From the NCBI RefSeq assembly GCF_003334385.1, contig NZ_QOWN01000005.1: a stretch of DNA of 64,000 nt. One strand, written 5' to 3'. The translations under genes and the position numbers were made by a program. Position 1 is the first letter of the stretch. Every line of letters starts with the position of its first letter. The notes under the pieces are model-generated. The model was given only the letters and a program-made list of their open reading frames with translations. It made no database searches and was not told the DNA's origin. Positions 1 through 60,377 of the stretch are shown one piece after another. This stretch comes from Escherichia coli (GTDB lineage Bacteria; Pseudomonadota; Gammaproteobacteria; Enterobacterales; Enterobacteriaceae).

Positions 1-157
1 AATCGTGGGCATCAAAACGTTCGCCTTTCAGGGCAACAAACAGGCAGCCCGGCGTCAGTTTTCGGGTATCAGTGGTTACAGCATCAAGGGTGATATCTGC
101 ACCTTGCAGTTCACCGTTGAGAATGTCGGTAAGTTGGCTAAGGGTTACGCTAATCAT
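1..157 (-). CDS. murF: UDP-MurNAc-tripeptide--D-alanyl-D-alanine ligase MurF, 5' fragment (about 52 codons; remainder lies beyond window start)
   Basis: Reverse-strand translation from ATG at 155-157 reads [52 protein letters not shown]; ATGA start/stop overlap with murE; absent from ORF track because truncated by window edge. Confidence 0.85.
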
Positions 158-1641
158 GCAATCACCCCCAGCAGACGCGCCACCGTGACGCGATCGGAGT
201 AGTCCAGACGCTGATTGCCAACAATCTGGTAATCTTCATGGCCTTTGCCCGCGACCAGTACCACATCATTCTCTTTAGCCTGCATAACGGCGCAAGTCAC
301 CGCTTCAGCACGGCCTTCCATCACTTTGGCATGTCCGGCATCTAACATTCCCGCCAGAATATCGTTGATGATGGCACGCGGTTCTTCGGTACGCGGGTTA
401 TCGTCCGTCACCACCGCCACGTCAGCAAACTCTTCGGCAATTGCGCCCATCAGTGGACGCTTACCTTTATCGCGATCGCCACCACAGCCAAAGACACACC
501 ACAGCTTGCCCGCACAGTGCAGACGCGCCGCCTGTAAGGCTTTTTCCAGTGCATCCGGCGTATGCGCGTAATCCACCACCACCGTCGGTTTGCCTGGCGC
601 AGTGAACACTTCCATACGTCCGCAAACCGGTTGCAGACGCGCGGCGGTTTTCAGCAGATCAGCCAGTGGATAGCCGAGTGCCAACAGTGTCGCCAGCGCG
701 AGCAGCAGGTTGCTGACGTTAAAAGCGCCCATCAGATGGCTTTCAATTTCGCCATCGCCCCAACTTGAGCTAAAGCGAATCGTCGCACCGCTGTCGTGAT
801 AGTTCACTTCGGTCGCTTTCAACCAGCGTCCGTGACAGTTCGGATTAATATGATCTTCCATTGATACCGCAACCGCGTCCGGCAGTTTTGCCAGCCAGCG
901 GCGGCCCACTTCATCGTCGGCGTTAATAATCGCCTGACCGCAATGATGCTCAGAATAAAGCAGCCATTTCGCGGCTTCGTAGTGTTCCATATCACCATGA
1001 TAATCAAGGTGATCGCGGCTTAAGTTGGTAAAGACCGACGCCGCAAATTTCAATGCCGCCACACGGTGCTGTACCAGCCCGTGGGAGGAAACTTCCATTG
1101 CGCAAAACGTCGCGCCCTGATCCACCAGCCCCGCCAGCTCATGCTGAACATCGACTGCCGAACCGGTTGTATTTTCTGTCGGGATCACTTTCCCCAGCAG
1201 GCCGTTACCAACGGTGCCCATTACCGCGCTGGTTTCGCCAAGCAGTTGGCTCCACTGCGCCAACAGCTGGGTAGTCGTGGTTTTGCCGTTGGTGCCCGTT
1301 ACGCCCACGAGACGTAAATTGTCAGAGGGTTCATGGTAAAAGCGGCCCGCCAGTGCAGATAAACGCTCGTTGAGCTGGCTGAGATAGATGACCGGTACGC
1401 CGTGCATTTCACGGATTTCACCATCGGTCGCCTCATCTTTCGCCTCTGCAATAATGGCAGCCACACCTTGCGCTATCGCCTGCGGGATATATCGACGCCC
1501 GTCCGCCTGATGACCTACTACAGCTACAAAGAGATCGCCCGCCGCAGCCACACGGCTGTCGAGTGTCATCTCTCGCAGTGCTCGCGAAGGTGCGTCTGGC
1601 ACCCACGGAGCAAGAAGGTCGCGCAAATTACGATCTGCCAC
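154..1641 (-). CDS. murE: UDP-MurNAc-L-Ala-D-Glu--meso-diaminopimelate ligase
   Basis: 495-aa ORF starting [13 protein letters not shown], Mur ligase P-loop GTNGKTTT; dcw-cluster synteny. Confidence 0.95.
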
Positions 1642-3394
1642 CTGTCCCCTCGCCTTGATTAATCACAAATTCATTTTTATCGCCCGTTGTCAGCGCATCC
1701 GGCTCGATGTTCATGGTACGCAATACGCCGCCCATGATGGCACCAAAGACCGGCGCGGAAACGGCGCCGCCGTAGTATTTACCCGCCTGCGGATCGTTGA
1801 TAACAACAACCAGCGCGAAGCGCGGCTGACTCGCAGGCGCAACGCCTGCGGTATAAGCAATATATTTATTGATGTAGCGACCGTCCGGCCCGACCTTTTT
1901 CGCGGTACCGGTTTTAATGGCGATACGATAGCCTTTAATCGCCGCCTTCACGCCGCCGCCGCCTGGTAGCGCCACGCTTTCCATCATATGCACCACAGTG
2001 CGGACAATGGATTCCGGGAAGACACGTTCACCGGGAACCGGGGGGTCAACTTTGGTAATCGACAGTGGGCGATAAATGCCGTAGCTGCCGATAGTTGCGT
2101 AGACTCGCGCTAACTGTAATGGTGTTACCATTAGCCCGTAGCCGAAAGAGAAGGTGGCCCTCTCTATGTCAGACCACCGTTGTTTTTGAGGATATAAGCC
2201 ACTGCGTTCTCCGACCAACCCCAAATTGGTCGCTTTTCCCAGTCCAAAACGTGAGTAAGTATCTACTAACGCTGAGGACGGCATCGCTAACGCCAGCTTG
2301 GAAACACCGACGTTACTCGACTTCTGTAATACCCCGGTCAGGGTTAATTCGCTGTAGCGTGCCACGTCTTTGATTTCGTGGCCGTTAATTCGATAAGGAA
2401 TGGTATTGAGTACCGAGTTTTCCCGCACCACGCCACGTTGCAACGCGGTCATTACCACCATCGGTTTAACCGTTGAGCCCGGTTCAAACACGTCGGTGAT
2501 GGTACGGTTACGCATCGCCTCTTTCGGCGTGCCGCTCAGATTGTTAGGGTTGTATGACGGGCTGTTAGCCATCGCCAGCACTTCACCGGTGTTGACATCC
2601 ACCAGCACGGCGCTACCAGATTCAGCCTTGTTAAAGGCCACCGCGTTGTTCAGTTCGCGATAAACCAGCGCCTGCAGGCGTTCATCAATACTCAGCGCCA
2701 GGTTGTGCGCTGCCTGGCTGTCAGTAGAAGAAATATCTTCAATTACGCGACCATAGCGGTCTTTACGCACAATGCGCTCACCCGGCTGCCCGGTAAGCCA
2801 TTTATCGAAACTCTTCTCAACGCCCTCAATCCCTTGACTATCGACGTTAGTAAAGCCGATGAGGTGAGCAGTCACTTCGCCGGACGGATAGTAACGGCGA
2901 GACTCTTCACGCAGATGAATCCCCGGCAGTTTCAGTTTTTTGATGTAGTCCGCCATGTCAGGGTTCACCTGACGCGCCAGATAAATAAAGCGCCCTTTCG
3001 GGTTGGCGTTAATGCGGGCTGAAAGCTGATCCAGCGGAATATTGAGCGCGTTAGCCAGCGCCTTCCAGCGGTCACCGACGCTGATACCGCCAGCGTCATG
3101 CACTTCTTTCGGGTCAGCCCAAATCGCTTTTACCGGCACGCTCACCGCTAACGGGCGACCAGAACGGTCAGTAATCATGCCGCGGGAGGTGGAAACTTGC
3201 TGAACGCGAAGAGAACGCATGTCGCCCTCTTTCACCAGCATATCCGGGGAGATAACTTGTAACCACGCTACGCGTCCGAGCAGAAAAGCCAGCGCCAGGA
3301 GAATACAGCCGCATAACAACGCAAAACGCCAACTGATAAAGTTGGCATGTTCTTCCTGACGTTTTGGTTTCTGCGTTTTCGCCGCTGCTTTCAT
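1628..3394 (-). CDS. ftsI: Peptidoglycan D,D-transpeptidase FtsI (PBP3)
   Basis: 588-aa ORF; N-terminal membrane anchor; penicillin-binding motifs STVK, SSN, KTGT visible in translation; 14-nt overlap with murE start. Confidence 0.95.
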
Positions 3395-3409
3395 GCGTCG
3401 CGTTTATCC

Positions 3410-3775
3410 TTATTTTTGCACTACGATATTTTCTTGTGACGGATCAACATGCTGCATTTGCAGCTTTTCCGTGGCGATCCTTTCCACCCGGCTATGGTCG
3501 CCGAGCGCATTCTCTTCAAGGATCAGGTTGCGCCATTCAATGTCTAAAGCATCTCGCTCCAGCACCAGTTGTTCGCGCTGAGCGGTCAGTAAACGGGTAT
3601 GGTGCGCCGTGGTTACCACAGTCACCGCCGTCAAAATAATGCAAATGAACAGGCAGAGTGGCAGCTTCCCAAATCGCAAAAGATCGTCACCGATAACACC
3701 AGGCAATGCATGGCGCTCGTGGCTTCCCATCGATCCTTTAACTTTGCTTAGAGCTTCTGTCACTCTGCTGATCAT
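3410..3775 (-). CDS. ftsL: Cell division protein FtsL
   Basis: 121-aa [15 protein letters not shown]..., single TM segment, position between rsmH and ftsI. Confidence 0.93.
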
Positions 3776-4713
3776 GCATTCGTCCTCTCTGCAATACGCA
3801 GAACTGAACTACGGGCACGAGGGTTCTCAGCCACCTCTTCTTCGCCCGGCATTAACTTGCCTAGTGCTCGCAGCTGACGGCCACCCAGTTTTTTGAGCTG
3901 CTCTTCAGTCATCGGTAACCCTGCCGGAACTTGCGGACCGCGGCTGTTTTCACGCATAAAACGTTTCACAATACGGTCTTCCAGCGAGTGGAAGCTGATG
4001 ATCGAAAGCCGCCCACCCGGGGCCAGCACGTTGAGCGAGCTTTTTAGCGCCTGCTCTATCTCCTCCAGTTCACTGTTTACCCAAATGCGCACCGCCTGGA
4101 AGGTACGGGTCGCGGGATGTTTAAACTTATCTTTCACCGGCGTTGCAGCAGCCACGACTTCCGCCAGTTCTTTGGTGCGGGTCATCGGCTGTTCGCGGTT
4201 ACGCTCGACAATGGCGCGGGCAATGCGTTTGGCAAAACGCTCTTCACCATAGGTTTTCAATACCCAGGCGATATCGGCTTCTTCTGCGGTTTGTAGCCAT
4301 TCAGCGGCTGACTGCCCACGGGTTGGGTCCATACGCATGTCCAGCGGACCATCGCGCATAAAGGAAAAGCCACGTTCAGCATCATCAAGTTGCGGTGAAG
4401 AGACGCCAAGATCGAGGAGAATGCCGTCGATCTTGCCGATAAGATCGCGCTCGGCAACGTATTCGCCCAGCGCGGAGAAAGGTCCGTGGATGATGGAGAA
4501 GCGCGGATCATCAATAGTCTTCGCAACGGCGATAGCCTGCGGGTCGCGATCGATCGCCAGCAAACGCCCCTCTTCGCCAAGCTGCGAGAGGATCAGACGT
4601 GAGTGACCACCGCGACCAAAAGTCCCATCAATGTAGATGCCATCAGGACGGATATTGAGGCCATTAACGGCTTCATCCAGCAGCACCGTAGTATGTTTAT
4701 AGTTTTCCATCAT
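3772..4713 (-). CDS. rsmH: 16S rRNA m4C1402 methyltransferase RsmH (MraW)
   Basis: ORF track frame 3772..4842; annotated 313-aa protein begins at internal [18 protein letters not shown]; SAM-MTase motif DGTFGRGGH. Confidence 0.9.
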
Positions 4714-4714
4714 T

Positions 4715-5173
4715 TTATAGAGACAAGTCCTGCAGTCGCTCCGATAAGTCTCCGGTAGCCAACTGCTCTGCGTCGATATCTTCCTTGACCTGTTGATGCC
4801 AGGTTGTTTCATCCCACAGCTCAAACTTGTTGAACTGTCCAACCAGCATCACTTCTTTTGTCAGCCCGGCATGTTGCCGCAGTACTGGCGCGATTAACAA
4901 TCGACCTGCGCCATCCATCTGACATTCGCTGGCATGACCTAACAGTAGGCGCTGCACACGGCGCTCAACCGGGTTCATGCTCGACAGACGCGATAATTTT
5001 TGCTCGATAATTTCCCATTCAGGCAGGGGGTAAAGCAGCAGGCACGGGTGATAAATGTCAATGGTGCAAACCATTTGACCGGCAGCGTTCTCAAGCAGCT
5101 GTTCCCGATAACGGGTAGGCACTGATAAGCGCCCTTTGCTGTCGAGATTGACTAACGTTGCTCCCCGGAACAT
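4715..5173 (-). CDS. mraZ: Transcriptional regulator MraZ
   Basis: ORF track frame 4715..5209; 152-aa protein from [19 protein letters not shown]; first gene of dcw cluster. Confidence 0.9.
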
Positions 5174-5192
5174 GCCAGCCTCACCCCTTATT

Positions 5193-5217
5193 CCCACTTT
5201 GCCCCACAATTTCCCAC
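5193..5217 (-). promoter_or_regulatory. Three GTGGG direct repeats at 10-bp spacing in mraZ leader (MraZ operator / Pmra region)
   Basis: Minus-strand reading GTGGGaaattGTGGGgcaaaGTGGGaataagGGGTGAGG just upstream of mraZ ATG; plus-strand CCCAC at 5193-5197, 5203-5207, 5213-5217. Confidence 0.6.
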
Positions 5218-5774
5218 TGAAAGGAGTTTACGGAGCTGAGGAAAAGCTTGTCAAGCCAGTCACAAGGCATACCGAGGTAAAAAACCCGATGTTTACGGCT
5301 AATATCAGCGTTGTTTATTTTACGTCCAACGCGCGAAGCAAATTAACGTTATGAATAGCTGTAAGAAAAAATCCCTCATCGTCATCACCGTTTTAAAATG
5401 ACTCACTATTTTCCACAGCAAATATAAAGTGTCAGTTTGCGACGCGAGCGGCATTTTAGGACATATCTTCCCCGGTTAACAGTCCTTGTTACGTCTGTGT
5501 GGCGCTTGATGCCAGCGGGTTTGCGCAAAAGCAAAGAAAAGTGTTTGTTAAATCGGCAATTCATCGCCGCATGTAACAAAATAATGCAAAAACGCGCTGT
5601 CGATATCACTTAATTATTGTGAATTTCAGCTGGTGAGTTAATTAACGGGCGGGTTTAAAAGCATTTATCAATAATAGTCAGGAATAGTCTTATTTACTTT
5701 AAGCATATTGATGTCCAGTCCCGTACTCTACGCGCCAGAGGGAAATTCACCTGGCGCGTATTTTTGTTCGCGGC

Positions 5775-6779
5775 TTAGCTACGGCTGAGCACGCCGCGGC
5801 GATAGAGATTACGTTTAATGCGCGTTAAACCAGGTTTTGGCTTACGCGGTTCGTCCAGGCTTGCCAGGACAATCTCCAGCACACGCTCTGCGACATCGCG
5901 GTGACGTTGAGCCACTGCCAGCACCGGACACTGTAAGAAGTCGAGCAGTTCGTTATCGCCAAAGGTGGCAATTGCCAGGTCAGAAGGCAGTTTGCCGTCG
6001 CGACGCAGCGTGACATCCATCACTCCTTGCAACAACGCAAACGACGTTGTGAACAGCGCCTGCGGCATCGGATGCGTTTCCAGCCATTTTTCGAATAACT
6101 GGGCAGCCGCCTCCCGCTCATAGCTGTTGGCATACAGGAAATGCACTTCGCGCGGATCATCTTTCCAGGCAGTACGGAAACCTTGTTCACGCAGGAAGCT
6201 GACAGAAAGCTCCGGTAGCGCACCAAGATAAAGCACCGTCTCGGCGGGAAACTTACGTAACTCTTCCGCCAGCATTTCGGCATCATCCTGATCGGCACCA
6301 ACCACGCTGGTGAAGTGTTCACGATCGAGGGCGCGGTCCAGCGCGACAATCGGGAACGGGTCGTTAGCCCAGCGTTGATAAAAAGGATGCTCAGGAGGCA
6401 ACGACGTCGAAACAATAATGGCATCAACCTGACGCTGTAAAAGGTGCTCAATGCACCGCATTTCGTTGTCTGGCTGATCTTCTGAGCAGGCAATCAGCAG
6501 TTGATAACCCCGTTGCCGCGCTTGGCGTTCAAGATAGTTAGCGATGCGGGTATAGCTGGTGTTCTCCAGATCGGGGATCACAAGACCAATAGAACGTGTG
6601 CGTCCAGCACGAAGCCCAGCTGCCACGGCGTTCGGGTGGTAATTGTGCTCACGCACCACAGCCATGACTTTTTCAACGGTTTTGTCGCTCACACGGTATT
6701 GCTTCGCTTTGCCGTTAATAACATAGCTTGCAGTGGTCCGCGACACTCCCGCCAGCCGAGCGATTTCATCCAGTTTCAC
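5775..6779 (-). CDS. cra: Catabolite repressor/activator Cra (FruR), LacI family
   Basis: 334-aa [28 protein letters not shown] (LacI-type HTH) followed by periplasmic-binding-like effector domain. Confidence 0.95.
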
Positions 6780-10439: not shown

Positions 10440-11098
10440 ACTTAACTCCACTGTCACACTTAACTCCCTTTCCCTTATTGGAATGCAGAGAAATAATCCT
10501 GAAGAATATGATTTATCATGCATATAAAATAAGAAAAAGCAAAATGAGTAAAATTCGGAAAACATAAAGATACGGGTTCTGATAAAAACAGAATCCATTG
10601 CCGTGGAATGAGTCATTTACCACAGCATAATAATCCATAATATTTTTGTTGCGAAAACAATCTAATCATAACTACCGCGAATACTCAATCATCTACAAAA
10701 TGGATTAAATGTGCTTATTTAATAATTAATTTATATATTTAATGCATTAATTCTTAACATTAATTGATCAATAATATTCACCAAATCAATATCAAAAAAA
10801 ATCGCAAAACATATAATTCAATACAAATCATCAGGATAGGTTTTGCAACGCGTGCATTTTGTCCCCTTTTTCCTCGTTGATTAGATGCAAAAATTTATGC
10901 TGAAATATGTCAACCGATGAAAAGCGTCGGTAGTTAAGCAGAAATTAATATCGCTTACTTTAACCACCGCAGCACAATTAGCTAATTTTACGGATGCAGA
11001 ACTCACGCTGGCGGGACGTTTTTATTGCGTCAGGGTTGACATCCGTTTTTGTATCCAGTAACTCTAAAAGCATATCGCATTCATCTGGAGCTGATTTA
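10440..11098. promoter_or_regulatory. leuO-leuL divergent intergenic region, strongly AT-rich (probable H-NS-bound silencing/promoter-relay region)
   Basis: 659-bp non-coding block; 10680-10860 is almost pure A/T (ttaataattaatttatatatttaatgcattaattcttaacattaattgatcaataatattc); role inferred from established knowledge. Confidence 0.5.
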
Positions 11099-11185
11099 AT
11101 GACTCACATCGTTCGCTTTATCGGTCTACTACTACTAAACGCATCTTCTTTGCGCGGTAGACGAGTGAGCGGCATCCAGCATTAA
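11099..11185 (+). CDS. leuL: leu operon leader peptide (28 aa) with four consecutive Leu codons
   Basis: ATG ACT CAC ATC GTT CGC TTT ATC GGT CTA CTA CTA CTA AAC ... = [28 protein letters not shown], stop TAA 11183-11185. Confidence 0.9.
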
Positions 11186-11208
11186 GCCAGCACGCAGTCA
11201 AACAAAAA

Positions 11209-11236
11209 ACCCGCGCCATTGCGCGGGTTTTTTTAT
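11209..11236 (+). terminator. leu attenuator intrinsic terminator
   Basis: acccgcgc-catt-gcgcgggt hairpin followed by T7 run, between leuL and leuA. Confidence 0.8.
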
Positions 11237-17213: not shown

Positions 17214-17440
17214 AAAAAAAACCAGCAGGTATAATCTGCTGGCGGGTGATTTTACACCAATACTCAGTCACACATGATGCAGGCAAGTCAACTTTCAGAA
17301 TTGCGGTCATCCCACTGCATCAGTCCTTCAAGCATGGTTAATCGTTGTGGGACGCTTAACCAACGCAACCAGCACAACTTCGCTGTCGCGGTAAAATAGT
17401 GCTGATAAAACTGACGCATGGGGCACCCCCTTGCTTCATC
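17214..17440 (-). ncRNA. sgrS: SgrS small RNA (glucose-phosphate stress sRNA, dual-function)
   Basis: Minus-strand 3' end reads ...AAATCACCCGCCAGCAGATTATACCTGCTGGTTTTTTTT (terminator, U8 tail at 17214-17221); 5' end GATGAAGCAAGGGGGTGCCC near 17440; divergent from sgrR; contains sgrT ORF. Confidence 0.85.
17288..17419 (-). CDS. sgrT: SgrT, 43-aa peptide encoded within SgrS
   Basis: C-terminal 43 codons of ORF-track frame 17288..17587: MRQFYQHYFTATAKLCWLRWLSVPQRLTMLEGLMQWDDRNSES, ATG at 17417-17419. Confidence 0.85.
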   Translation of the reverse strand: MRQFYQHYFTATAKLCWLRWLSVPQRLTMLEGLMQWDDRNSES

Positions 17441-19163: not shown

Positions 19164-19198
19164 TTGCTGGTTGATAACAAAATCACTACACTAACGCC

Positions 19199-19291
19199 GT
19201 TCTCAACGGGGTGCCACGCGTACGCGTGCGCTGAGAAAATACCCGTCGAACCTGATCCGGATAACGCCGGCGAAGGGATTTGAGGCTCCTT
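19199..19291 (+). promoter_or_regulatory. sroA: TPP riboswitch (THI-box; sroA) in thiBPQ leader
   Basis: THI-box core ggggtgccacgcgtacgcgtgcgCTGAGAaaatACCCgtcgAACCTGATCCGGATAAcGCCGGCGaAGGGA upstream of thiB; boundaries approximate. Confidence 0.75.
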
Positions 19292-19326
19292 CTCAAGTCC
19301 TTTGCCACTCTTTTTTGAGGTGCAAA

Positions 19327-20310
19327 GTGTTAAAAAAATGTCTGCCCCTGCTGTTGCTGTGCACAGCGCCCGTTTTCGCTAAACCCGTTCTGACTGTTTA
19401 TACCTACGATTCCTTCGCCGCCGACTGGGGGCCTGGTCCGGTGGTTAAAAAAGCCTTTGAAGCCGACTGTAATTGCGAACTGAAACTGGTGGCGCTGGAA
19501 GATGGCGTTTCGCTTCTCAACCGTCTACGGATGGAAGGCAAAAACAGTAAAACCGATGTGGTGCTGGGGCTGGATAACAACCTGTTAGACGCCGCCAGTA
19601 AAACCGGACTGTTTGCCAAAAGCGGTGTGGCAGCGGATGCCGTTAACGTTCCCGGCGGCTGGAATAATGACACTTTCGTACCGTTTGATTATGGCTACTT
19701 CGCCTTCGTTTATGACAAGAACAAACTGAAAAACCCGCCACAAAGCCTGAAAGAACTGGTTGAGAGCGATCAAAACTGGCGGGTGATTTATCAGGATCCG
19801 CGCACCAGTACACCGGGGCTGGGTCTGTTGCTATGGATGCAAAAAGTCTATGGCGATGACGCCCCACAAGCCTGGCAGAAACTGGCGAAGAAAACGGTCA
19901 CGGTCACCAAAGGCTGGAGCGAAGCCTACGGCCTGTTTTTAAAAGGTGAAAGCGATCTGGTACTGAGTTACACCACCTCTCCGGCTTATCACATTCTCGA
20001 AGAGAAGAAAGATAACTACGCCGCCGCGAACTTCAGCGAAGGTCACTATCTGCAAGTGGAAGTCGCCGCCCGCACCGCTGCCAGCAAGCAGCCGGAGCTG
20101 GCGCAAAAATTCCTCCAGTTTATGGTTTCTCCGGCTTTCCAGAATGCGATCCCAACCGGCAACTGGATGTATCCGGTGGCAAACGTCACGCTGCCTGCCG
20201 GTTTTGAAAAATTGACCAAACCCGCAACCACGTTGGAGTTCACGCCAGCCGAAGTGGCGGCACAACGTCAGGCATGGATTAGCGAATGGCAACGCGCCGT
20301 CAGCCGTTAA
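19327..20310 (+). CDS. thiB: Thiamine ABC transporter periplasmic binding protein
   Basis: ORF track frame from TTG 19315; GTG 19327 after gagg RBS gives (M)LKKCLPLLLLCTAPVFA signal peptide; 327 aa. Confidence 0.9.
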   Translation: MLKKCLPLLLLCTAPVFAKPVLTVYTYDSFAADWGPGPVVKKAFEADCNCELKLVALEDGVSLLNRLRMEGKNSKTDVVLGLDNNLLDAASKTGLFAKSGVAADAVNVPGGWNNDTFVPFDYGYFAFVYDKNKLKNPPQSLKELVESDQNWRVIYQDPRTSTPGLGLLLWMQKVYGDDAPQAWQKLAKKTVTVTKGWSEAYGLFLKGESDLVLSYTTSPAYHILEEKKDNYAAANFSEGHYLQVEVAARTAASKQPELAQKFLQFMVSPAFQNAIPTGNWMYPVANVTLPAGFEKLTKPATTLEFTPAEVAAQRQAWISEWQRAVSR

Positions 20311-21896
20311 TTCCCGGCTGGTTAATTCCAGGTGTAAGCGCCACCACGCTGGTGGTAGCGGTTGCGCTGGCGGCGTTTCTCGCCCTGTGGTGGAACGCGC
20401 CGCAGGATGACTGGGTGGCAGTCTGGCAGGACAGCTATCTGTGGCATGTGGTGCGCTTCTCCTTCTGGCAGGCGTTTCTCTCGGCACTGCTCTCTGTCAT
20501 ACCCGCGATATTCCTCGCCCGCGCGCTCTATCGCAGGCGCTTTCCGGGTCGGCTGGCGCTGTTGCGTCTGTGTGCAATGACCTTGATCCTCCCGGTGTTG
20601 GTCGCTGTTTTCGGCATTCTTAGCGTCTATGGTCGCCAGGGCTGGCTGGCAACACTCTGCCAATCGCTCGGTCTGGAGTGGACCTTTTCGCCCTACGGCC
20701 TGCAAGGTATTTTGCTGGCCCATGTGTTTTTTAATCTGCCGATGGCGAGCCGCTTATTACTCCAGGCACTGGAAAACATCCCCGGCGAACAGCGTCAACT
20801 TGCCGCCCAGCTTGGGATGCGTAGCTGGCATTTTTTCCGCTTCGTCGAATGGCCGTGGTTACGGCGACAAATCCCGCCGGTTGCTGCGCTTATCTTTATG
20901 CTCTGTTTCGCCAGCTTCGCCACCGTGCTATCGCTGGGGGGCGGTCCGCAGGCGACCACTATCGAGCTGGCAATCTATCAGGCGCTGAGTTACGACTACG
21001 ATCCTGCCCGCGCGGCAATGCTGGCGCTGCTCCAGATGGTGTGCTGCCTCGGGCTGGTGCTGTTGAGTCAGCGATTGAGTAAGGCCATTGCGCCCGGCAC
21101 CACGCTGCTGCAAGGCTGGCGCGACCCGGACGATCGTCTGCATAGCCGCATTTGCGACACGGTGTTAATTGTGCTGGCGCTGCTGCTGTTGCTGCCACCG
21201 TTACTGGCGGTGATCGTCGATGGGGTAAATCGCCAGTTGCCGGAAGTGCTGGCACAACCGGTGCTGTGGCAGGCGCTGTGGACCTCGTTGCGTATTGCGC
21301 TGGCGGCAGGTGTATTGTGCGTAGTGCTGACCATGATGCTGCTATGGAGCAGTCGCGAACTGCGGGCGCGGCAGAAAATGCTGGCGGGTCAGGTGCTGGA
21401 GATGAGCGGCATGTTGATCCTCGCCATGCCGGGGATTGTGCTGGCTACCGGCTTCTTTTTACTGCTCAACAACACTATCGGCCTGCCACAATCTGCTGAC
21501 GGCATTGTGATTTTCACCAATGCGTTAATGGCGATCCCTTATGCGCTGAAAGTGCTGGAAAACCCGATGCGCGATATCACCGCCCGCTACAGCATGTTAT
21601 GTCAGTCGCTGGGGATTGAAGGCTGGTCACGCTTAAAAGTGGTGGAGCTGCGCGCCCTGAAACGTCCACTGGCGCAGGCGCTGGCCTTTGCATGCGTGCT
21701 GTCGATTGGTGATTTTGGCGTGGTGGCGTTGTTCGGTAACGATGATTTCCGCACCCTGCCGTTTTATCTCTACCAGCAAATTGGCTCCTATCGCAGCCAG
21801 GACGGTGCGGTCACCGCGTTAATTCTGCTGCTGCTCTGTTTTCTGCTGTTTACCGTGATTGAAAAACTACCGGGGCGAAATGTTAAAACTGACTGA
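20286..21896 (+). CDS. thiP: Thiamine ABC transporter permease
   Basis: 536-aa polytopic membrane [20 protein letters not shown]; start overlaps thiB end by 25 nt. Confidence 0.92.
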
Positions 21897-27989: not shown

Positions 27990-28415
27990 GTAACACCTGA
28001 TGCGACGCTGACGCGTCTTATCTGGCCTACACGCTGCGATTTTGTAGGCCGGATAAGCAAAGCGCATCCGGCATTCAACGCCTGATGCGACGCTGGCGCG
28101 TCTTATCAGGCCTACGCGCTGCGATTTTGTAGGCCGGATAAGCAAAGCGCATCCGGCATTCAACGCCTGATGCGACGCTGGCGCGTCTTATCAGGCCTAC
28201 GCGCTGCGATTTTGTAGGCCGGATAAGCAAAGCGCATCCGGCATTCAACGCCTGATGCGACGCTGGCGCGTCTTATCAGGCCTACGCGCTGCGATTTTGT
28301 AGGCCGGATAAGCAAAGCGCATCCGGCATTCAACGCCTGATGCGACGCTGGCGCGTCTTATCAGGCCTACACGCTGCGATTTTGTAGGCCGGATAAGCAA
28401 AGCGCATCCGGCACG
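27990..28415. repeat. Tandem array of five ~85-bp BIME units (paired inverted REP sequences) between araA and araD
   Basis: Unit boundaries about 27995/28080/28165/28250/28335; units 2-4 are identical 85-mers (gcctgatgcgacgctggcgcgtcttatcaggcctacgcgctgcgattttgtaggccggataagcaaagcgcatccggcattcaac), units 1 and 5 carry a few substitutions. Confidence 0.9.
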
Positions 28416-60201: not shown

Positions 60202-60377
60202 TGCCGGATGCGGCGTAAACGCCTTATCCAACTCTGCTGGAGAGCAACCGTAGGCCGGATAAGATGCGCCAGCATCGCATCCGGCGATAGCTGTCGGATG
60301 CGGCATAAACGCCTTATCCAACCCGGCTGGAGAGCAACCGTAAGCCGGATAAGATGCGCCAGCATCGCATCCGGCGA
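60202..60377. repeat. Two tandem ~86-bp BIME units (each an inverted REP pair) between convergent caiE and caiF
   Basis: Unit A 60202-60287 and unit B 60292-60377: t(g/t)(c/t)cggatgcggc(g/a)taaacgccttatccaac(t/c)c(t/g)gctggagagcaaccgta(g/a)gccggataagatgcgccagcatcgcatccggcga. Confidence 0.85.

Follow-up and report, generated by a model that had tools for sequence, protein, structure and literature searches.

The closest described relatives of the junction studied here are the translationally coupled gene pairs treated by Brown and Wade (2025; PMC12548453) and Huber et al. (2019, 2023), in which, as at ftsI/murE, both genes are co-directional and belong to the same operon. Two non-exclusive models of coupling have been put forward, namely RNA unfolding and post-termination scanning (Brown and Wade, 2025; PMC12548453). 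ftsI/murE resembles the reviewed pairs in having its stop and start codons within one ribosome footprint and the Shine-Dalgarno (SD) sequence embedded in the upstream gene. However, the spacings enriched among the reviewed pairs are NTGA (-4), -1 and -8 (PMC12548453), and the -14 of ftsI/murE is not among them. As the murE start lies 11 nt upstream of the ftsI stop, a ribosome that has terminated would need to travel back along the mRNA to use it. A second comparison is offered by tmk/holB, from a genome-recoding study that also dealt with ftsI/murE (Napolitano et al., bioRxiv 10.1101/069385). In both pairs an essential gene has an AGA codon within its overlap with a second essential gene. Recoding this AGA to a synonymous codon without regard to the partner harmed that partner, and another synonymous codon avoided the damage. 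The two cases differ in the damage done, which was the loss of the tmk stop codon in tmk/holB and a missense change in MurE in ftsI/murE.

The window is a stretch of 64,000 nt from an Escherichia coli contig (NZ_QOWN01000005.1). Its first 5.2 kb carry six co-directional genes on the minus strand in the order mraZ-rsmH-ftsL-ftsI-murE-murF, an order that we also found in relatives, and the locus is the ftsI-murE junction of the E. coli division and cell-wall (dcw/mra) operon. The best-matching strain, E. coli SCU-104, has a sequence 100% identical to positions 1-5400 and differs from the window in repeat copy number elsewhere. The region is present in 5,425 of 5,426 complete E. coli genomes. The block has been described as one operon (Dar and Sorek).

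All of the genes were placed by RefSeq and, for the five that are complete in the window, by NCBIfam profiles. On the minus strand, mraZ occupies 4715-5173, rsmH 3772-4713 (313 aa, annotated ATG at 4713), ftsL 3410-3775 (with an AAGGA SD overlapping the ftsL stop), ftsI, which encodes PBP3, 1628-3394 (588 aa) and murE 154-1641 (495 aa, also seen as an open reading frame). The 5′ end of murF, read from sequence and RefSeq, lies at 1-157 and is cut by the window edge. In the mechanical list of open reading frames rsmH is longer, extending up to a TTG at 4842. The RefSeq/PGAP coordinates of the E. coli genome that is 100% identical over 1-5400 agree, for each of the six genes, with the start and end as read here. 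The five complete proteins of the block all score above the curated cutoffs of NCBIfam equivalog or subfamily profiles. MurE reaches 896.9 bits against the equivalog profile NF001123 (cutoff 586), with residues 4-494 aligned to profile positions 2-492 of 493, and FtsI reaches 1316.1 bits against NF011685 (cutoff 737), residues 1-588 covering profile positions 1-588. MurE, the UDP-MurNAc-L-Ala-D-Glu:meso-DAP ligase, also matches the E. coli structures PDB 7B53 and 1E8C (phmmer E = 0) with one visible substitution over 495 aa; at residue 137 the window encodes Thr and the K-12-derived PDB sequence has Ile.

Inspection of the junctions gave distances of +1, -4, +15, -14 and -4 nt from mraZ to murF. 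A sequence-only reading of this DNA had described the block as having almost no intergenic DNA, and only two gaps indeed remain, one of 1 nt between mraZ and rsmH (4714) and one of 15 nt between ftsL and ftsI (3395-3409), both read directly on the minus strand. The two 4-nt overlaps that it listed were also confirmed by direct reading: the TGA stop of rsmH and the ATG start of ftsL share ATGA (gcATGAtc, 3775-3772), as do the stop of murE and the start of murF (gcATGAtt, 157-154). A consensus scan of the coding strand over 1-5800 found one promoter-like site upstream of a block gene, TTGACA-18-TAAACT at 5225-5254 (minus strand) upstream of mraZ, and two weaker ones farther upstream. The same scan found no site within 1-5173, and the regional count and density of sites were at chance level. 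The position of the candidate site would fit an mra promoter.

At the junction itself, murE begins with a GTG at 1641-1639 and ftsI ends with a TAA at 1630-1628, a stop that follows the first base of the GTG by 11 nt. The overlap is the 14-nt sequence GTGGCAGATCGTAA (1628-1641, minus strand), which encodes G-G-R-S-stop in ftsI and (f)M-A-D-R-(N) in murE. Read on the minus strand, the ftsI frame runs ...CAA GGC GAG GGG ACA GGT GGC AGA TCG TAA (Q G E G T G G R S stop) and the murE frame GTG GCA GAT CGT AAT TTG (fM A D R N L), so that the two genes have 14 nt in common in different frames, as the sequence-only reading had stated and as the RefSeq coordinates confirm. That reading was silent on the murE start being GTG and not ATG. 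A GAGG SD core for murE lies at 1651-1648, within ftsI codons E582-G583, and is separated from the GTG by a 6-nt spacer. The murE frame is closed by a TGA at 1665-1663, 24 nt upstream of the GTG.

Although the window does not come from K-12, the arrangement is the same as in E. coli K-12, in which ftsI (b0084) and murE (b0085) have the same relative coordinates, GTG start, 14-nt overlap and lengths of 588 and 495 aa. The overlap is already known and present in every E. coli annotation, and a failure documented during genome recoding was due to it; it therefore carries little weight as a discovery. Nor is its length unusual. Overlaps join 11 of the 44 same-strand adjacent gene pairs in the window (1, 1, 4, 4, 4, 4, 8, 14, 17, 25 and 34 nt), and the three that exceed 14 nt are thiB/thiP (25 nt), thiP/thiQ (17 nt) and a 34-nt overlap involving a pseudogene. 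Such overlaps are common.

The part of ftsI that takes up the murE start is one that mature PBP3 does not keep. The protease Prc trims PBP3 from residues 57-588 to residues 57-577 (PMC6686036). The C-terminal peptide removed corresponds to ftsI codons 578-588, which by translation lie at 1631-1663 on the minus strand. The C-terminal end of FtsI in the window is identical to that of the published Prc substrate, and the presumed processing is taken from that study (PMC6686036). Codons 578-588 contain the murE GAGG, the GTG and murE codons 2-4. The murE start region thus lies wholly inside codons whose product, an 11-residue peptide, is cut off the mature protein, which would explain why the overlap is tolerated. 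Between species, residues 578-585 of the FtsI tail vary (I/T/N, Q/K/R, G/N/K/A/D/E, G/A, T/S) and the final GGRS is fixed, which is the pattern expected if murE, and not FtsI, is the constraint. One species (L054) has a natural CAA to TAA change at Gln580 of ftsI, by which the overlap is lost and replaced by a 13-nt gap, and the GTG and GAGG are kept. In E. coli strain EA13 a shortening of A5 to A4 shifts the frame so that FtsI would end at the TGA at 1665-1663, near the Prc site; a sequencing error in the homopolymer would account for this change equally well. From the conservation patterns and the natural truncations we infer that ftsI codons 578-588 may be shaped mainly by the needs of murE. 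In practice, work on the 3′ end of ftsI calls for care, since every synonymous change, deletion or tag made there also affects the ribosome binding site and the first codons of the essential gene murE.

We consider it likely that murE is translated from the GTG in the last 14 nt of ftsI by GAGG-directed initiation, boosted by translation of ftsI, in an overlap that is tolerated because it falls in the discarded peptide. MurE would then be made by two routes. The first is ordinary SD-directed initiation at GAGG/GTG, which is real and probably supplies the larger share of MurE synthesis. The second, a plausible contribution, would be a boost from the ribosomes that translate ftsI. These may open the local mRNA, or, having terminated at the UAA, may be recaptured by the SD and restart at the GUG. 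The geometry is compatible with coupling, as the stop lies 11 nt past the GUG, within one ribosome footprint, and the SD lies just upstream. A literature search found no experiment on the dependence of murE translation on ftsI translation.

Published expression figures bear on the share of each route. Copy numbers from ribosome profiling, as quoted in PMC4428075, are 201 for FtsL, 144 for FtsI and 117 for FtsW. FtsW amounts to 20-25% of MurC/D/E/F, and MurE synthesis in vivo is similar to that of MraY (PMC10214165). By these second-hand figures MurE output is about 3-4 times that of FtsI and about 4-5 times that of FtsW (PMC4428075; PMC10214165). One-for-one termination-reinitiation can therefore not deliver all MurE. 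Pure re-initiation requires the downstream output to be no higher than the upstream output, and at ftsI/murE it is higher. Re-initiation could be the main source of MurE only with unequal mRNA along the operon, and mRNA differences could contribute.

Initiation at murE in isolation has been recorded by INRI-seq, a cell-free assay with retapamulin-stalled ribosomes (Hör et al., PMC9825163). The murE transcript in that assay is synthetic and spans -30 onward, and there is no ftsI translation; the junction sequence of the K-12 oligo is the same as in the window. With its transcript at 309 CPM, the isolated murE site gave 0-7.9 CPM, compared with 16-41 CPM for ftsI (transcript at 189) and 78-120 CPM for mraY (transcript at 65) (PMC9825163). 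Per transcript, murE initiation in vitro is thus about tenfold weaker than that of ftsI, despite the higher output of MurE in vivo.

The best-placed alternative is that the overlap is functionally neutral, with murE translated independently from its own GAGG/GTG and the overlap a by-product of operon compaction and of the dispensable tail end of ftsI. This is possible, though we hold it to be unlikely. In its favor, the isolated initiation region works in vitro without upstream translation, albeit weakly, and MurE is made in several-fold excess over FtsI. The weakness of that initiation next to ftsI and mraY nevertheless speaks against it, given that MurE output in vivo exceeds that of FtsI and equals that of MraY. 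The species in which an early stop in ftsI has removed the overlap, and which retains GAGG and GTG, likewise suits a neutral overlap; its ftsI stop is, however, only 13 nt upstream, so that coupling would still be possible there.

A neutral overlap would also agree with what we found for RNA structure. In E. coli a predicted stem pairs the murE SD with codons 9-11 at a probability of ∼0.9, which made masking of the SD and start by RNA structure a candidate. This candidate is possible but unsupported. Shuffled sequences fold at least as stably as the stem (z = +1.15), and in alignments of 67 and 47 distinct sequences it showed 0 compensatory changes and had several pairs broken in other species. 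A small inner hairpin after the GTG is uninformative on covariation because it never varies. An Rfam search of 1350-1800 gave no family match even at E ≤ 1.

Comparison with other genomes, which the sequence-only reading had proposed as a check, gives evidence on both sides. Our species set comprised 80 Enterobacteriaceae species, as the contig scan yielded Enterobacteriaceae only, and wider taxa were sampled through representatives of 50%-identity clusters. The 14-nt overlap ending in TAA is identical in 79 of the 80 species. It is also retained, together with GTGGCAAATCGTAA, in an endosymbiont lineage (“Candidatus ...”) with a MurE that is 60% identical, which may be Hamiltonella. Such an unchanged architecture argues against a neutral overlap. 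More distant relatives have differing junctions. An 8-nt overlap, ATGGCTGA, is found in L098, and L097 has one of 8 nt too. Gaps separate ftsI and murE in L093 (5 nt), L094 (10 nt), L095 (41 nt) and L090 (20 nt; cluster named Candidatus Schmidhempelia bombi). The gaps of 5-41 nt and the different 8-nt overlap in relatives at 48-54% identity are what a neutral overlap would allow. From these varied junctions we conclude that tight spacing is a general feature and the -14 architecture a lineage-specific one.

Among E. coli genomes, a 120-nt junction query reached an identity of 99% or more in 4,860 of 5,425, and the least similar records that we sampled differed outside the overlap only. One such difference, GGG/GGT at -5, affects the wobble position of the FtsI Gly583 codon and lies two bases 3′ of the GAGG core. 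Over the 80 species the GAGG core is invariant and its flanking bases vary. In an alignment of 77 sequences (the window and 76 other species) the junction holds a 21-nt invariant block, GGTGGCAGATCGTAATTTGCG (1622-1642, minus strand), and no other invariant run in the 3.24 kb of ftsI and murE is as long. The next longest runs fall within 2323-2151. This region corresponds to an ftsI-internal stable RNA that is unusually conserved at synonymous sites (Dar and Sorek, 2018), and the method therefore recovers a known element.

Part of this conservation extends past the overlap. Of 476 degenerate murE codons, 16 are represented by a single codon across the 80 species, and 7 of these are among codons 1-8. 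The conservation of murE codons 1-4 and of the first two bases of codon 5 follows from dual coding with ftsI. Codons 5, 6 and 8, just past the overlap, also use one codon in 80 of 80 species, which elsewhere in the gene holds for about 2% of degenerate codons. For codons 6 and 8 and for the third base of codon 5 this points to an extra constraint, of a kind ordinary for a translation initiation region. A second block of frozen synonymous sites was seen at murE codons 44-54 (1486-1515). The murE-internal decRNA of Dar and Sorek was considered as its source and rejected, as that RNA begins about 470 nt into murE. An open reading frame of 86 aa on the plus strand (1402-1662) was likewise rejected as a reason for the conserved blocks. 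Its codons lie exactly opposite those of murE, in a register that chance often leaves open, and the murE third positions between the blocks vary freely.

A post-transcriptional control element made up of the junction block and the codon 44-54 block, setting the ratio of MurE to FtsI, seems improbable to us. Candidates for such an element would be a binding site for an sRNA or a protein, or a site of processing comparable to the ftsI-internal FtsO RNA of this operon. If it existed, the conservation would go beyond dual coding and the ordinary constraints of a start site.

More improbable still is strict one-to-one termination-reinitiation from mraZ to murF, with each output set by the preceding gene. 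The junction distances of the block would suit such a chain, and in the INRI-seq tables the starts of rsmH, ftsL and murF are without a peak on isolated fragments in vitro, that of murF being seen in vivo (PMC9825163). However, ftsI and murE do initiate on isolated fragments, and the equal synthesis rates that the chain requires are not observed in the published profiling numbers, with FtsL and FtsI at different levels and MurE at several times FtsW. The compact spacing of the dcw operon does not, by these expression numbers, imply equal or strictly coupled output. The sequence-only reading had called the whole block translationally coupled. The geometry permits this, and as a reasonable generalisation from the anatomy it is plausible though unproven; in the strict one-to-one form the claim is contradicted by the unequal synthesis rates.

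The preferred explanation, SD-directed initiation with a boost from ftsI, takes the GTG as the true start of murE, and the sequence-only reading had noted that a different start would refute the overlap. The GTG is the 5′-most possible start, as no canonical start codon lies between it and the in-frame TGA. In all 80 Enterobacteriaceae species a TGA or TAA closes the murE frame at the aligned upstream position, and a GTG stands at the aligned start position (80/80). Michaud et al. are said to have reported in 1990 that the N-terminal sequence of MurE matches the gene. The NCBIfam MurE equivalog profile begins within two residues of the GTG start, and the chain in PDB 1E8C begins ADRNLRDLL, that is from residue Ala2 onward; as a recombinant protein this is supportive and no independent proof of the native N-terminus.

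Initiation data agree with this placement. In the INRI-seq study a peak of retapamulin-stalled ribosomes was assigned to the annotated murE start (93166) in 3 of 5 replicates, with 5.3-7.9 CPM against a threshold of 5 and at 12-18 nt from the annotated GTG, and murE is missing from the table of non-annotated (alternative) sites (Hör et al., PMC9825163). Ribo-RET in vivo gave a value of 0 at the murE start, with a method that detected only 18% of annotated starts. The start-site-mapping supplement of TetRP has no murE entry. MurE is also absent from the N-terminal proteomics supplement of TRAINSPOTTER, as expected because trypsin would release its N-terminus as ADR, a peptide too small for detection. 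The recoding study provides genetic evidence: changing ftsI AGA1759 to CGU was recalcitrant, which was attributed to the resulting Asp3 to Val change (D3V) in MurE, and changing the same AGA to CGA, which leaves MurE intact, succeeded (Napolitano et al., bioRxiv 10.1101/069385).

In relatives at 48-54% identity murE starts with ATG and the junction DNA is unrelated, yet the same N-terminus aligns from residue 1, as in MAERNLKALLAPW of L098 and MPNITLQALISPW of L093. The distant homologues have an N-terminal motif in common, at the same distance from residue 1. A start farther downstream, which would abolish the overlap, has next to no chance of being correct: TTG at codon 6 (1626-1624), GTG at codon 14 and ATG at codon 25 are all in frame, TTG6 and ATG25 are conserved and the native N-terminal peptide is lacking in the proteomics supplement, but all three were rejected as largely refuted by the recoding outcome, the INRI-seq peak without a listed alternative, the motif and spacing kept by homologues with unrelated junctions and the profile, which reaches residue 4, besides which codon 14 is GTA in several species and the GAGG spacing is correct for the GTG alone. 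TTG6 lies 1 nt after the ftsI stop.

In murE, synonymous sites are frozen in a second cluster at 1486-1515 on the minus strand (codons about 43-52, +126 to +155 from the GTG start). Codons 44, 45, 47, 48, 49, 52 and 54 are each represented by a single codon in all 80 of the Enterobacteriaceae species sampled, and the cluster contains an invariant 12-nt run, CGGACGGGCGTC, at 1505-1494 (minus strand). Two explanations for this cluster were discarded. The stable RNA that Dar & Sorek described inside murE starts ∼470 nt into the gene and was therefore rejected as the identity of the cluster. Codon bias was ruled out as its cause because the frozen codons include the non-preferred CAT and GGG. In an endosymbiont relative with 60% identity, the synonymous-site conservation of the cluster was absent.

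The upstream gene ftsI also contains a conserved stretch, at 2150-2323 on the minus strand. Its sequence matches the 173-nt ftsI-internal stable RNA (ftsI-decRNA) of Dar & Sorek, who reported synonymous-site conservation for this RNA. The stretch holds four invariant runs of 14-16 nt each and includes three of the four most conserved 30-nt windows. The ftsI-decRNA is also known as FtsO.

For the start regions of murF, ftsL and rsmH (154-157, 3772-3775 and 4711-4713, respectively, all on the minus strand) we consulted the published table of INRI-seq, a cell-free profiling of initiation on isolated start regions (Hör et al., PMC9825163). None of the three isolated regions gave a ribosome peak (0 of 5 replicates), and the murF start is detected in vivo by Ribo-RET. 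This pattern would be expected if the starts in ATGA overlaps (murF and ftsL), unlike that of murE, require upstream translation.

A GTG-initiated ORF of 86 aa lies antisense to the 5′ end of murE and to the junction with ftsI (1402-1662, plus strand), in exact codon-for-codon antisense register. As the third positions of murE are free to vary across most of this ORF, we judged it to be a chance open frame.

The C-terminal tail of FtsI is naturally truncated in two of the retrieved sequences. In Enterobacteriaceae bacterium RIT714, Gln580 is changed from CAA to TAA (L054:2485-2487, in the retrieved RIT714 sequence), leaving a 13-nt gap between the early ftsI stop and the murE GTG. In E. coli EA13 one base is lost from an A5 run (position 123 of its retrieved sequence, L002) and ftsI is annotated as a frameshifted pseudogene; the predicted protein ends in ...GDKMNL at a TGA equivalent to 1665-1663 of the window, close to the site cleaved by the protease Prc. 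The EA13 frameshift may be a sequencing error. In MurE, residue 137 (codon 1231-1233, minus strand) is Thr in the window and Ile in the K-12-derived PDB entries 7B53 and 1E8C, the sole difference visible in the alignments to these entries.

In the RefSeq annotation, the thiB/thiP (25 nt; 20286-20310) and thiP/thiQ (17 nt; 21880-21896) overlaps, both on the plus strand, exceed the ftsI/murE overlap in length. Four tandem 85-nt units of naRNA4 (REP/BIME-type repeats), each reaching the Rfam gathering score, lie between araA and araD (28047-28367, plus strand), and Rfam places one further copy at 60253-60323 (minus strand). The otherwise near-identical E. coli strain SCU-104 is 170 nt shorter in the araA-araD array, corresponding to two units fewer, and a second length difference is seen near 35.84-35.94 kb. 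Three known RNA elements, whose presence was expected, are full length: SgrS (17214-17440, minus strand; 228.8 bits), the leu operon leader (11085-11234, plus strand; 145.8 bits) and the TPP riboswitch that precedes thiB (19197-19296, plus strand; 65.9 bits).

Among the dcw-region matches in our collection of complete E. coli genomes, 3 of 5,425 fall on sequences that carry a plasmid label; these presumably reflect wrongly assigned replicons or artefacts of assembly.
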